Assembly (NCBI GenBank): GCA_963831855.1
Contig: CAWHSA010000006.1
Location: 225,843 to 289,842 of the forward strand
DNA from: an uncultured Bacteroidales bacterium
GTDB taxonomy: Bacteria > Bacteroidota > Bacteroidia > Bacteroidales > VadinHA17
DNA: 64,000 nucleotides
Reading direction: 5' to 3'
The notes under the pieces are model-generated. The model saw only the letters and a program-made list of their open reading frames with translations. It was not told the DNA's origin and did no database searches. This document shows positions 27,962 through 40,736 of the stretch, one piece after another. Position 1 is the first letter of the stretch. Each line of letters begins with the position of its first letter. The position numbers and the translations under genes were made by a program.

Positions 27962-28094
27962 CAGTAAATAATTCCTCTAAATTAATTAAATAGTAGAATT
28001 TGCCGGTATCCGGTTAATAAATGTTGTCAAATCAGCTTAATCAAATAGTACGAATCCCAGACAAGCTCTGGATTCATAAAACGGTGCAAGCACA

Positions 28095-28175
28095 GAGGAA
28101 CCGAGTTTACGAGCTCGGCGCAGCCAATTAAACCTGGCCTTTGCGTCCGCCGAAGCTTTACGCGAAGGCGGATTA
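28095..28175. repeat. REP-like GC-rich hairpins
   Basis: Two hairpins: ccgag-N8-ctcgg (28101-28118) and tccgcc-gaagctttacgcgaa-ggcgga (28146-28172). They have the same architecture (CCRCC ... GGYGG with a cgaagg-type arm) as a module at 40623-40646. Confidence 0.45.
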
Positions 28176-28392
28176 AAAAGTCCAAAAGAATAAGCGGCTG
28201 TCACAATAGATCAAACAATATGAGTAACTAGTCATTTTCCCCCTTTCTTAATCCTTCCCCTAAGCAATAACTACCCTTTATACACAACTTAAAAAATTTA
28301 CTGAAAAGTATATTCTAAATGTGATAGGAAGATTCCTCATTCATCCTCCTTCGTCGGATTCATTCGGAATGACAGGATCTTTTTTTAAGAGA

Positions 28393-28467
28393 GGGGAAGA
28401 AGTGGCGATTCGCCATTGGTTGTATGTTCTGGATCAGAAATCTTCTGCGAATCGCCACTTCTTCCCC
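28393..28467. repeat. Perfect 21-bp inverted repeat (stem) with a 33-nt loop, nested inside a second imperfect inverted repeat
   Basis: GGGGAAGAAGTGGCGATTCGC (28393-28413) is the exact reverse complement of GCGAATCGCCACTTCTTCCCC (28447-28467). The flanks ggaatgacagg (left) and ccttgtcatccc...gagcgcaagcgagggatc (right) form an outer imperfect palindrome of a type common in Bacteroidota intergenic repeats. Confidence 0.8.
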
Positions 28468-28657
28468 CTTGTGCCCCTCACATGCCTTGTCATCCCGAGC
28501 GCAAGCGAGGGATCTCCTCCTCCAATACCAGGGTTATCAGGAACAAATCTTTAATTTGGATCTCTTTCGCACAAAACAAAAAAAAGTCCAAAAAAATAAG
28601 GCCATAAAAGAAGATCCTTTATGGCCCTATATAAATCAGATGAACATTTTCAGATCA

Positions 28658-38847: not shown

Positions 38848-39145
38848 CTGTTTCTCCAGTTAAATAATAAAAATATCACCAGCAAGGTATTCTATTTTGA
38901 CTGGTGGCGGAAAACCTGTGCTCCTGACAACTTTCAGCCGGAATAAATTGACCAACCGAAGCCAAAGCTAAATCATTGAGATACAGATAGATATATTTTT
39001 TCAAACTAACCGGCAAAATATGGTTAATAAGCCCGGCTTTTGTATCTTATCAATTTACAATGAATTTCCTTTTTTTGATCAAAGACATTTTTCTCCCACT
39101 TTTTCTGAAAATATATTCAATATTATTTGGAAATAATTTAAAGAA

Positions 39146-39167
39146 TATATAAATTTGTATTTATATA
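39146..39167 (+). promoter_or_regulatory. Perfect 9-4-9 inverted repeat overlapping a TAnnTTTG -7 box. This is a candidate ArsR operator/promoter.
   Basis: tatataaat-ttgt-atttatata (39146-39154 / 39159-39167). TAAATTTG at 39150-39157 lies 24 nt upstream of the arsR-like ATG. The region is AT-rich, so a chance palindrome is possible. Confidence 0.4.
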
Positions 39168-39180
39168 AACATGTTTTTAT

Positions 39181-39528
39181 ATGGATGACCTTAAAAAGCT
39201 TCAGCTGATCTTTCAGACATTGTCTGACTATAACAGATTGGGAATGATAAGATTCATATGTGAAAAAGAAAGATCAGTCGGTGAAATTGTAAAAGAGACA
39301 AAACTATCGCAACCGCTTGTTTCACATCACCTGAGAGTCCTTAAAGAGAATGGTATTCTTGAAACCAAACGAAACGGGCCTTTCATATTTTATTTTATAA
39401 GAGATAAAAAAATCCTTGATGCCATTAATCTGGTTTTAGAAATCTTCAGGGATTCTGATATAAAAGACAACACCGGCTCCAAATTCTGTTCTGGCTGGAT
39501 AAGTGGTAATTACAATACTAAAAGATAG
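39181..39528 (+). CDS. ArsR/SmtB-family winged-helix transcriptional regulator
   Basis: 115-aa ORF. The stretch FQTLSDYNRLGMIRFICEKERSVGEIVKETKLSQPLVSHHLRVLKENGILETKRNG is the classic ArsR HTH (QPLVSHHL.VL). It lacks the canonical CVC metal site, having a single Cys in FICEKE. Confidence 0.85.
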   Translation: MDDLKKLQLIFQTLSDYNRLGMIRFICEKERSVGEIVKETKLSQPLVSHHLRVLKENGILETKRNGPFIFYFIRDKKILDAINLVLEIFRDSDIKDNTGSKFCSGWISGNYNTKR

Positions 39529-39540
39529 GAGGAAAAAACA

Positions 39541-40050
39541 ATGAGTATCAAAGAAAAGTTCATGAACGACATGATGGGAAATCAGTTTAAAAACATGACT
39601 TCCGAAGAAAAGAAACAAATGATGGAAACCATGATGGATAAGTTCTTTTCATCAATGTCCGAAGATGAAAAGAAAAACTTGATGTCAGGTATGATGGGCA
39701 AAATGATGGGTAATAACCCAATGATGGGCATGATGTCAATGATGATGGGTAAGAAAGGTAAAGATTCTGAAAAAGGAAGTGAAGGTGGGAAAATGCCCTG
39801 GGACATGTGTTGCGAAATGATGACCGGGATGAAGGAAACTGCAAATACAGCAAAATTTGCTACATCTGAGTTAAGAGGATTGTTTGATGAATGGTGCCAG
39901 CAGATTGAGAAAGAGTTACTGGATTTTATAAAAGAAAAGGGATCAATAAAAATACCTGAAATGGTCGAGAAATTTAGTCTTTCAGAGGAAAGCATCAAGT
40001 ATCTTTTAAGCAGGCTGGCTAATAAGAATTTGATAGATTACAAAATATAA
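39541..40050 (+). CDS. Methionine-rich protein with a C-terminal winged-helix-like (FeoC-like) domain
   Basis: 169-aa ORF starting 12 nt after the arsR-like stop. By my count it has 28 Met, 27 of them in the first ~96 residues (MMGKMMGNNPMMGMMSMMMGK), plus a CC pair (DMCCEMM). The C-terminus ELLDFIKEKGSIKIPEMVEKFSLSEESIKYLLSRLANKNLI looks like a small wHTH. Confidence 0.7.
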   Translation: MSIKEKFMNDMMGNQFKNMTSEEKKQMMETMMDKFFSSMSEDEKKNLMSGMMGKMMGNNPMMGMMSMMMGKKGKDSEKGSEGGKMPWDMCCEMMTGMKETANTAKFATSELRGLFDEWCQQIEKELLDFIKEKGSIKIPEMVEKFSLSEESIKYLLSRLANKNLIDYKI

Positions 40051-40079
40051 CGGGAGTTTAATTACTGATCCTGACGGTT

Positions 40080-40406
40080 ATGAGTAAAGTAAAAATTAAA
40101 CCTTTTAATGTTATCGATCATACTGATCTGCCTGAAATGACAGTTGATCGGCTTCCTGTTGAGGGAGATCCCCTTGAGATTGACAGGGAAATGTACTATA
40201 TCTGTGAAACTAAAAGCAAGGAAAAAGATGGTCCTCAGGAGATTGGGGTGATACCTCTGGTCGTTAAAAATCCGACTAAGGTTAAAAATATTAAGAATTA
40301 TGTCGACTGTTTATCAATTGCTCACAGAAGGATACAATTCAGGAAGAATAATAATATCTGTGATTTCAATGATTGTGACGAAATGATAATAAAAAAACCC
40401 CTTTAA
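40080..40406 (+). CDS. Hypothetical small protein
   Basis: 108-aa ORF co-directional with the arsR-like operon and followed directly by a terminator hairpin. I recognise no motif. Confidence 0.5.
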   Translation: MSKVKIKPFNVIDHTDLPEMTVDRLPVEGDPLEIDREMYYICETKSKEKDGPQEIGVIPLVVKNPTKVKNIKNYVDCLSIAHRRIQFRKNNNICDFNDCDEMIIKKPL

Positions 40407-40423
40407 AAATAAGGGGCTTTTTA
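40398..40423. terminator. Bidirectional intrinsic terminator
   Basis: The stem is cccctt / aagggg (40398-40403 / 40411-40416) with loop taaaaat. It is followed by cttttta on the plus strand and by a T7 run on the minus strand (complement of 40391-40397). It sits between the end of the 40080..40406 ORF and the 3' end of tRNA-Cys. Confidence 0.6.
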
Positions 40424-40431
40424 TGGGGTTG

Positions 40432-40502
40432 AGGTCGGTGGCGGATTCGAACCGCCGTAAACGGTTTTGCAGACCGCTACCTAGCCACTCGGTTAACCGA
40501 CC
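40432..40502 (-). tRNA. tRNA-Cys (anticodon GCA)
   Basis: The manual fold of the minus strand is GGTCGGT-TA-ACCGAGTGGCTAGGTA-GCGGT CTGCAAA ACCGT-TTAC-GGCGG TTCGAAT CCGCC-ACCGACC-T. It has a 7-bp acceptor stem, a T loop TTCGAAT and an anticodon loop CT-GCA-AA. It is 71 nt long and CCA is not encoded. Confidence 0.9.
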
Positions 40503-40550
40503 ATAATTTTTTATTAAAAGAACTCAAAAAATCTCCTTCACATTTTTTCG

Positions 40551-40714
40551 TTGGCGGATTGTCAGGCTATTGCCTGGCGAACTCCTTCACCTCGTTCAGT
40601 CGGTTCGAACCGCCGTTTTCAACCACCGTAGCCCTGGCGAAGGTGGTAAACGGATTTGTCCCGCCTTGCGGGACTACCTAACCTCCCGATAATTATCGGG
40701 ACGGTTAACCGACC
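40551..40714 (-). pseudogene. tRNA-Cys-derived element carrying four hairpin insertions or replacements (a degenerate tandem copy, or a tRNA-like leader RNA)
   Basis: Collinear blocks shared with the intact tRNA (plus-strand spelling) are ggcggatt, ttcgaaccgccgt (13/13), taaacgg, tacctaacc (8/9) and cggttaaccgaccat (15/15). Hairpin modules interrupt them at 40561-40603, 40623-40646, 40658-40674 and 40684-40701. The anticodon is lost and the 3' acceptor strand is degenerate. Confidence 0.7.
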
Positions 40715-40728
40715 ATACTTTTGGCATG

Positions 40729-40736
40729 CAAAAATA
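40729..40736 (-). promoter_or_regulatory. Bacteroidota -7 promoter box (TATTTTTG on the minus strand) in front of the tRNA-like element and tRNA-Cys
   Basis: The plus strand reads caaaaata, the complement of TAnnTTTG. It lies about 15 nt upstream of the first tRNA-like nucleotide (40712). I found no comparable box in the 48-nt spacer before the intact tRNA. Confidence 0.45.

Follow-up and report, generated by a model that had tools for sequence, protein, structure and literature searches.

A tRNA-Cys-like element with hairpin modules at its loop positions precedes tRNA-Cys in an uncultured Bacteroidales bacterium and recurs in other contigs

What is a second, visibly incapacitated copy of a tRNA-Cys gene doing between a promoter and the intact gene, and why does it carry an inserted module at each of four loop sites? 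The question is raised by a 64,000-nucleotide stretch of DNA from an uncultured Bacteroidales bacterium (contig CAWHSA010000006.1 of assembly GCA_963831855.1; the whole stretch is called the window below), in which a tRNA-Cys-like element of ~169 nt lies on the minus strand, upstream of tRNA-Cys(GCA). The base composition of the window (41% G+C) and its gene content (SusC/SusD, GH43, GH92, GH97) are Bacteroidota-like. A first-pass annotation, made from the letters alone, had weighed a duplicated tRNA gene repeatedly hit by hairpins resembling repetitive extragenic palindromes (REPs) against a functional, expanded tRNA-like RNA. The latter is plausible from the sequence, and we give an even chance to the following reading: the element is a tandem tRNA-Cys copy without an anticodon arm, which is transcribed together with tRNA-Cys and has been retained as a structured RNA, either tRNA-like or acting as a leader.

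Read on the minus strand and aligned to the adjacent gene, the element is collinear with tRNA-Cys(GCA), with a match far above chance, and is broken by four modules, M1 to M4 (Table 1). Both the promoter-proximal series of tRNA-Cys-derived segments and the modules, namely an 18-nt palindrome, a 7-bp hairpin, a 24-nt hairpin and a 43-nt module, are where the first-pass annotation had placed them. S1 and two leader bases together match tRNA-Cys in 15/15 positions, ACGGCGGTTCGAA (40616-40604) matches in 13/13, and a further tRNA-derived segment, AATCCGCCA, occupies 40560-40552; S2 carries one C-to-T change in the window copy, and its family consensus is GGCTAGGTAG. This anatomy suggests an origin by tandem duplication of the promoter-proximal tRNA-Cys gene. 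Of the original gene, the copy would still hold the 5' strand of the acceptor stem, U8, the D stem, G18-G19, the 3' strand of the anticodon stem, the variable loop and, in the T arm, the stem and loop positions 54-58; missing from it would be the first anticodon base and the whole 5' half of the anticodon arm. Hairpin modules occupy four loop sites, with M1 in the D loop, M2 at the anticodon position, M3 in the variable region and M4 at T-loop positions 59/60. With M2 in their place, the 5' strand of the anticodon stem and CUG are gone, and so is most of the anticodon loop with the first anticodon base; M4 consists of a conserved 28-nt core (40576-40603) followed by a variable tip hairpin. With the acceptor remnant reckoned as part of the element, 43 nt separate it from the tRNA, not the 48 nt given earlier. 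The check with ARAGORN and Rfam that had been proposed for this region called tRNA-Cys(GCA) at 40431-40502 as the sole tRNA near the element; the element itself (40546-40714) is not called by ARAGORN and has no Rfam match at gathering score or at E values up to 10.

Two of the modules share TTCGCCAGG, as had been noticed before. This sequence occurs twice in the window, both times within the element, in M4 (40573-40581) and in M3 (40633-40641). In M4 it is found in the window copy alone, the others in the family carrying GCTCGCGAG there, which suggests that M3 sequence was copied locally into M4. Elsewhere in the window, no module copies above 10-nt chance matches were found.

Relative to the promoter, the element sits, by its sequence, in exactly the place of a tRNA. 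The box in front of it, TATTTTTG (40736-40729), already picked out in the first pass, fits the Bacteroides -7 consensus, published as TAnnTTTG (PMC4747536). An identical box with identical spacing stands ahead of ordinary tRNA-Cys in L081 and L248 (L numbers denote the loci collected for comparison), and the promoter-to-element distance of 14-15 nt equals the promoter-to-tRNA distance in these two loci. Terminator-like sites were looked for on the minus strand from the promoter box to tRNA-Cys and none was found in between, so that co-transcription of the element and tRNA-Cys is predicted. The element would form the first half of a two-part precursor made from the tRNA-Cys promoter, and RNase P would part the two by cutting the real tRNA free at its 5' end. 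An internal promoter in the spacer was considered and rejected: a perfect TAnnTTTG is found in the spacer of L088 only and is absent from that of the window, and co-transcription with tRNA-Cys therefore stays the default. The motifs AAATGT and GTTCTTT are common to the spacers of the window, L085-L088 and L091, where they lie ~20-25 nt ahead of the next unit.

The element is not confined to the window. When metagenomes were scanned with a degenerate pattern of the tRNA-Cys D arm that allows 12-42 nt of inserted sequence (GGTCGGTTAACCG N12-42 GGYTAGGTAG), the same kind of element came up in seven contigs, L085-L091. L086, L087 and L088 carry the full M1-M2-M3-M4 series, with a spacer and then an ordinary tRNA-Cys behind it, and L091 has a short form with M1 and M2, without M3 and M4, again ahead of tRNA-Cys; the arrangement of element, spacer and ordinary tRNA-Cys is thus seen in four of the seven contigs. 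L089 and L090 are cut by contig ends, L089 apparently lacking M3 and M4 before its end and L090 holding a different, nested hairpin insert in its D loop. In L085 (reverse strand, 1791-2121) two elements stand in tandem, the first of them without D arm and M1 and with two tandem copies of M4, a duplication that shows M4 behaving, at the sequence level, as a ~50-nt unit (CCGA...GCAA). Every M4, including the two tandem copies of L085, ends in GCAA, and the target-site duplication that had been surmised from a repeated TT at M4 is not established.

Flanking genes differ among the family loci, and the order M1 to M4 is constant across these differing genomic contexts. In a profile search with nhmmer the window copy scores E = 2e-58, although it was itself part of the alignment; the independent copies in L085, L089, L090 and L091 match the family profile at E values of 1e-9 to 1e-33, and among the collected loci no copies beyond the window and L085-L091 were found. 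None of the elements of L085-L091 was called as a tRNA or matched an Rfam family (E up to 1), and Rfam at permissive thresholds returned only chance-level matches for the window region and the family loci. An exact metagenome scan with the promoter plus the tRNA 5' end and an IMG/VR scan with a T-loop-insert pattern both gave 0 matches. Our search of the literature on tRNA-like or tRNA-Cys motifs in Bacteroidetes found nothing relevant and no paper describing the element. By the sequences at hand, the element is a member of a small, undescribed, tRNA-Cys-derived family in uncultured Bacteroidota, and not a one-off.

Conservation within the family is uneven (Table 1; identities are mean pairwise values over the four full-length copies). 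Between L087 and L088 the first 30 nt of M4 are exactly alike, whereas the M4 tips, M2 and M3 differ widely. The M2 stem GTCCCG/CGGGAC is kept across loci, among which inner pairs change from C-G to A-U and the tips vary, the M3 stem shows a compensatory change (CCACC/GGTGG versus CCTCC/GGAGG), and the base stem of M4 has gone from C-G to U-A in the window. Taking M3 together with the leader and spacer hairpins of the same type, here labelled hp, ten copies could be aligned, in which 86% of cells pair and double changes occur in 5/10 pairs; 0/500 shuffles reach the observed covariation score. Wobble-preserving transitions are found in tRNA-derived stems, namely the T stem of L086 and the acceptor stems of L087, L088 and L091. 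The L088 element has the family sequence even though the tRNA-Cys beside it deviates in D arm and variable loop, so that conservation is not just conversion from the neighbour. L085 and L086, which share their genomic context, are 87.6% identical over 1.7 kb and 94% identical in the 5' 103 nt of the element. No other copy is as far from the family consensus as that of the window, which differs in S2, S3, three M4-core positions, the acceptor strand and the base stem of M4; it has eroded furthest among the members and may be in the course of being lost. The suspicion that it is just a dead tRNA copy does not hold for the family, since the composite M1-M4 stands in the same order in seven contigs with different flanking genes; recurrence, uneven conservation and compensatory stem changes together speak for a family rather than a unique dead copy. 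A small conserved open reading frame behind the AAGGAG in M4 was considered as well and rejected, as its ATG is present in L087 only.

Table 1. Features of the tRNA-Cys locus and of the related hairpin in the window, with mean pairwise identity among four full-length family copies
Feature	Positions	Strand	Basis or remark	Identity
Whole tRNA-Cys-like element, ~169 nt	40546-40714	minus	collinear alignment to tRNA-Cys; homologues in L085-L091	
Leader				0.44
S1 GGTCGGTTAACCG: 5' acceptor strand, U8-A9, 5' D-stem strand	40702-40714	minus	identical to tRNA	1.00 (required by the scan)
M1 TCCCGATAATTATCGGGA: 18-nt perfect palindrome in D loop, AATT-centre variant	40684-40701	minus	inverted-repeat analysis	0.94
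S2 GGTTAGGTAG: D-loop GG, 3' D-stem strand, position 26	40674-40683	minus	alignment	0.95 (required by the scan)
M2 GTCCCGCAAGGCGGGAC: hairpin, 7-bp stem	40658-40674	minus	sequence	stems 0.9-1.0; tip 0.18
S3 CAAATCCGTTTAC: anticodon-loop remnant, 3' anticodon-stem strand, variable loop	40646-40658	minus	12/13 to tRNA	0.91
M3, hp hairpin CC-TTCGC-N4-GCTACGG-GG (CCACC...GGTGG), 24 nt, variable region	40623-40646	minus	sequence	loop 0.42
Variable linker, then T 5' strand GGCGG and T-loop TTCGAA	40604-40622	minus	alignment	M3-T linker 0.45; T 5' strand plus loop 0.95
M4: 43-nt family-specific module at T-loop positions 59/60, between TTCGAA and (AA)TCCGCC	40561-40603	minus	sequence	core (28 nt) 0.93; tip 0.33
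AA, 3' T-stem strand (T)CCGCC, decayed 3' acceptor strand AACGAAA	40546-40560	minus	sequence, alignment	3' acceptor strand 0.64
Spacer from element to tRNA-Cys, family motifs AAATGT and GTTCTTT, terminator-free	40503-40545	minus	sequence	spacer start 0.54
tRNA-Cys(GCA), intact	40431-40502	minus	ARAGORN; Rfam tRNA 61.3 bits	
-7 promoter box TATTTTTG, Bacteroidota type	40729-40736	minus	14 nt 5' of the element's first base; sequence	
Terminator-like hairpin with U tract (intrinsic type), closes the unit; bidirectional with the 108-aa gene	40392-40422	minus	sole minus-strand terminator, 3' of tRNA	
Separate hp-type hairpin TCCGCCTTCGCGTAAAGCTTCGGCGGA, same type as M3	28146-28172	minus	hairpin-rich intergenic region	

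The element could instead be neutral or selfish DNA: a tandem tRNA-Cys pseudogene that is transcribed and discarded in processing, offers small palindromic repeats of the M1 and hp types a harmless site in which to insert and turn over, and persists or spreads through recombination at the tRNA-Cys locus without benefiting the cell. We regard this as a serious possibility, though one that falls short of probable, and it draws on the nature of M1. The AGCT-centre form of M1, TCCCGATAGCTATCGGGA, is found in six family loci. The exact 18-mer also occurs in 46 IMG/VR stretches (L092, L115-L159), for which the 15 IMG/VR matches of the 16-nt M2 palindrome serve as a rough yardstick; several of these contigs hold 2-5 copies, and the flanks are diverse. 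The AATT-centre variant has two IMG/VR matches, one of them, in L123, 108 nt from an AGCT copy. TCCCGATAGCTATCGGGA further occurs in 3 of 80 unrelated GTDB loci (~0.7 Mb; L051:6633, L060:6524 and L078:8354, two of them Flavobacterium), so that its carriers comprise virus-like contigs as well as Flavobacterium and Bacteroidales genomes. Only 19% of M1 copies fall in open frames of at least 100 aa, compared to 82% of random positions, and copies are at times nested in other GC-rich or terminator-like hairpins. The flanks of 49 distinct M1 contexts have no common GTAG or CGTC tag, and we found no paper with the M1 palindrome TCCCGATAGCTATCGGGA. By this distribution, M1 is best described as a dispersed REP-like extragenic palindrome.

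The other modules behave differently from one another. The palindromic variant of M2 (L086/L089) has its 15 IMG/VR matches at about the chance level, and the 82 matches of the hp pattern in IMG/VR, mostly in one phage gene family or without extended stem, are likewise consistent with chance. Hairpins of the hp type (for example GGTACACCTTTGCCAATACTACGGTGTACAC) abut ordinary tRNA-Cys as leaders in L093 (1549-1580) and L097 (1021-1051), stand directly before the element in L088 and L091, and occur once more nested in the spacer of L086. Their sequences and positions point to the hp hairpin as a recurrent leader structure of tRNA-Cys in these bacteria; in L093, L097, L088 and L091 its end coincides with the first base of the tRNA-Cys or element. 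The M4 core, by comparison, has no match in IMG/VR and was not found outside the family in the collected loci. The proposal of REP-like hairpins is therefore borne out for M1, a dispersed palindrome, and finds some support in the recurrence of the M3 type, whereas it does not extend to M4; a preference of such hairpins for tRNA loops is not seen, as M1 copies elsewhere are not near tRNAs and M4 is absent outside the family.

Besides the dispersal of M1 and the hp hairpins in ordinary tRNA-Cys leaders and in the L086 spacer, neutral or selfish DNA would account for closest relatives that do without the element, for modules that have been duplicated, lost or swapped between loci, for a 3' acceptor strand that decays differently copy by copy, and for module stems without an excess of G-U pairs. 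REP families include sub-families with alternative complementary stem residues (PMC3733652), so that stem covariation alone is no proof of a function of the composite. It accounts less well for the high identity of the unpaired-looking M4 core (0.93) and of S3 (0.91), as against tips, linkers and leaders at 0.18-0.45; for the conservation of the M4 core when no copy that could have served as a conversion donor was found in IMG/VR or the collected loci; for the constancy of the four-module order in different genomic contexts; and for the L088 element, conserved independently of its neighbouring tRNA.

It is this pattern of conservation that may reflect selection for a structured, non-decoding RNA. 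Candidate roles of such a retained tRNA-Cys copy would be those of a tRNA-shaped RNA, of a structured leader acting on the expression or processing of tRNA-Cys, or of a protein binder. Several observations weigh against retention. One is the patchy distribution of the element, the closest relatives of both the window and L086 having just the promoter and an ordinary tRNA-Cys. L081, the nearest relative of the window that was found (GH43 gene 89% identical in nucleotides), has the same promoter (49 nt, 96% identical) leading directly into an ordinary tRNA-Cys, ...ACCGAGTGGCTAGGTAGCGGT, at the contig end. L085, L086 and L090 share a context with a divergent AraC-like gene; of the contigs related to this context, L093-L096 have promoter, hp hairpin and ordinary tRNA-Cys, and L248-L256 have the promoter and then ordinary tRNA-Cys, in both cases without the element. 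They stem from two protein clusters, for each of which 24 contigs were read, and no distinct place shown has the element. Relatives with nothing at the site of the element, which the first-pass annotation had listed among the signs of a dead copy, hence do exist (L081, L093-L096, L248-L256), and the element must have been gained or lost between close relatives. Loss is readily conceivable. A direct repeat of the 5' part of the tRNA (21 nt, 95%) bounds a 212-nt unit of element plus spacer, and recombination between the direct repeats ATGGTCGGTTAACCG would easily remove this unit; it would yield exactly the state of L081 and could explain the patchy distribution. The L081 contig breaks 38 nt into the tRNA, which repeat or strain variation may underlie. 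At L081:1250-2611 a sulfatase gene, absent from the window, lies between the GH43 gene and the tRNA-Cys promoter.

The further points on this side concern sequence and fold. The conservation of S1 and S2 was imposed by the search pattern, 9-10 copies are known in all, and the architecture is plastic, the first copy of L085, L089, L090 and L091 all deviating from the full form. M1 is a generic extragenic repeat whose copies elsewhere are not associated with tRNAs, and the module stems show no G-U excess, so that the module hairpins could be selected at the DNA level. In the window, the acceptor strands GGUCGGU and AACGAAA (40552-40546) form 4/7 pairs, in line with the decay of the 3' strand described at first; the other copies, whose 3' strand reads ACCGAU, ACCGGAC or ACCGGGC, form 5-6/7 pairs, or seven with a bulge. 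A tRNA-like structure with acceptor, D and T stems imposed comes at a cost of 6-16 kcal/mol over the minimum-free-energy structure, and RNAalifold favours a pairing in which the 5' strand joins CGGUUCGAACCGACU, a stretch made up of T stem, T loop and the beginning of M4; it also pairs GUGAAGGAGCUCG with CGAGCAAUCCGCCAC.

The element is nonetheless more stable than its shuffles (z = -4.07; in a second test, z = -3.45). In these models the local hairpins are well supported and the global fold is not, and the substitutions at hand do not separate the tRNA-like fold from that of RNAalifold. The sequences for an elbow are retained (D-loop GG and T-loop 54-58, with T and D stems formable): the inserts lie in the D loop before G18-G19, at the anticodon stem position, in the variable region and at T-loop 59/60, and spare the elbow bases. 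These are insert sites that the tRNA fold tolerates. The junction of T loop and M4 (40601-40612) is a 12-nt perfect palindrome, CGGTTCGAACCG, with a near match to CGGTTAACCG in the 5' part of the element, and the two are able to pair with one another, which underlies the alternative fold.

A more specific version of the structured-RNA reading would make the element a modular RNA on a tRNA scaffold, that is, a non-decoding tRNA-Cys paralogue whose loops display hairpins, the conserved family-specific 28-nt core among them. It would be made from the tRNA-Cys promoter, trimmed by the tRNA machinery and active in trans, where it might soak up a protein or, by mimicry, adjust the processing or charging of tRNA-Cys. 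We put this forward as a speculative proposal that is doubtful on the present evidence.

If the module hairpins matter as DNA, they could be operators, the palindromes just 3' of the transcription start, chiefly M1, binding dimeric proteins that control transcription of tRNA-Cys. M1 is indeed a perfect palindrome at about +20 to +40 from the predicted start, its sole variant alters both central bases with the symmetry kept (AGCT to AATT), and the lack of a G-U excess in the hairpin stems would be expected. We nevertheless consider operators improbable: M1 is found in many unrelated intergenic places, often nested in hairpins or terminator-like contexts, and therefore fits a repeat better than the operator of a single gene; the hp hairpin keeps its asymmetric mismatches and a single orientation with respect to transcription; and relatives without the element use the same promoter without any palindrome.

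An integration scar, in which the partial tRNA repeats would be attachment-site (att) remnants of integrative elements that target tRNA-Cys, is more improbable still. It could invoke the direct repeat of the tRNA 5' part, the resemblance of the M4 start CCGACTGAAC to the 3' acceptor strand and trailer of the tRNA, CCGACCTCAAC, and a context-shifting cassette just 3' of the tRNA. All tRNA parts, however, stand in order within 170 nt, unlike in an att duplication, the repeats are 212 nt apart, no integrase was seen among the neighbouring open reading frames, and the same composite recurs in other genomes. Finally, that the element is a working tRNA-Cys gene whose intron-like inserts, placed like archaeal tRNA introns in the D loop, anticodon loop, variable region and T loop, are removed after transcription can be dismissed as contradicted by the sequence, since excision of the modules fails to rebuild a tRNA, the product being short of part of the anticodon and of the 5' strand of the anticodon stem, and since the acceptor stem has degenerated, bulge-helix-bulge motifs are not apparent, a complete tRNA-Cys adjoins the element and bacteria, to our knowledge, lack a tRNA splicing endonuclease.

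The surroundings of the locus have features of their own. The cassette 3' of the tRNA (39075-40391, 1.3 kb) encodes an ArsR-family regulator, a Met-rich 169-aa protein and a 108-aa protein. It recurs with 88-94% nucleotide identity in three other contigs (L082-L084, two of them from one sample), where the neighbours are entirely different and no tRNA is present, and looks mobile or recently exchanged. The 108-aa frame (40080-40406, plus strand), which adjoins the tRNA terminator, is a conserved gene with 187 homologues and without a Pfam domain; among the 120 of these 187 that were listed, identity ranges from 63 to 100%. Synteny searches through this gene led to the ArsR cassette in other contexts without a tRNA, and those through the upstream GH43 gene to 80 GTDB loci (60-79% amino acid identity) with no tRNA-Cys or element nearby; an exact look-up of the window's own proteins found none on record. 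The hairpin at 28146-28172, whose likeness to M3 had been pointed out early on and proved to be one of type, belongs to a 700-nt intergenic region 3' of susD (27962-28657, minus strand) that is packed with hairpins, among them a long inverted repeat at ~28400-28466 and CCGAGCTCGTAAACTCGG.

If the element is functional, it would found a new RNA family absent from Rfam and provide a compact system in which to study the tRNA features that processing enzymes need and the co-option of hairpin repeats. Should the tRNA-scaffolded version be true, it would represent a new class of bacterial tRNA-derived regulatory RNA, with REP-like hairpins recruited into functional RNAs. If it is not functional, it offers a clear natural case of palindromic repeats settling at permissive tRNA loop positions. 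It would then also illustrate how quickly such units come and go at a tRNA locus, and be of relevance to annotation, as tRNA finders miss such pseudo-tRNAs. The analysis has further brought to light TCCCGATAGCTATCGGGA, an 18-nt palindrome spread through Bacteroidota and virus-like contigs.

Among known systems, REPs and bacterial interspersed mosaic elements (BIMEs), which carry GTAG or CGTC tags and are mobilised by REP-associated tyrosine transposases (RAYTs), are the closest counterpart of M1, being short, GC-rich, multi-copy palindromes that are dispersed, extragenic and at times clustered or nested. REPs also occur occasionally inside genes and can be transcribed (PMC3733652). M1, however, has no GTAG or CGTC tag, the GTAG beside M2 being native tRNA sequence; no RAYT was seen in the window, where no search aimed at transposases was made; and the conserved entity is not a REP but several modules combined on the backbone of a tRNA. 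With tRNA pseudogenes and partial tRNA repeats, the element shares the degenerate tandem copy beside a working gene and the direct repeats that allow gain and loss; an example is E. coli tyrT, which reportedly has 178-bp repeats with tRNA-Tyr 3' ends. It differs from them as a composite conserved in several genomes, always promoter-proximal and with an insert at every loop.

In the sites of its inserts the element resembles the multi-intron and split tRNA genes of archaea, but excision of these inserts rebuilds no tRNA, its host is bacterial and an intact tRNA-Cys lies alongside. Rickettsia palindromic elements, of 100-150 bp and located in functional genes, are likewise small palindromic DNA at permissive sites of a structured RNA gene; the modules described here are shorter (15-50 nt), and the copy that hosts them no longer functions as a tRNA. 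In engineered tRNA scaffolds, a hairpin is grafted at the anticodon stem only, and the tRNA body provides folding, processing and stability. The likeness of the element to these constructs is an analogy and not evidence.

Non-coding RNAs derived from tRNA are few in bacteria (tmRNA, YrlA), and we know of none that arose from a tandem copy of a housekeeping tRNA kept in its transcription unit. Like the element, YrlA and the tRNA-like domain of tmRNA have acceptor, D and T parts without a decoding anticodon arm, and by analogy the element may possibly be recognized by tRNA-processing enzymes. No YrlA match to Rfam was obtained for the window region or the seven loci, ARAGORN finds no tmRNA, and no Ro/Rsr or Rtc genes were seen near the element. 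Instead of belonging to either of these RNAs, the element derives from the adjacent tRNA-Cys and lies within the transcription unit of that very gene.

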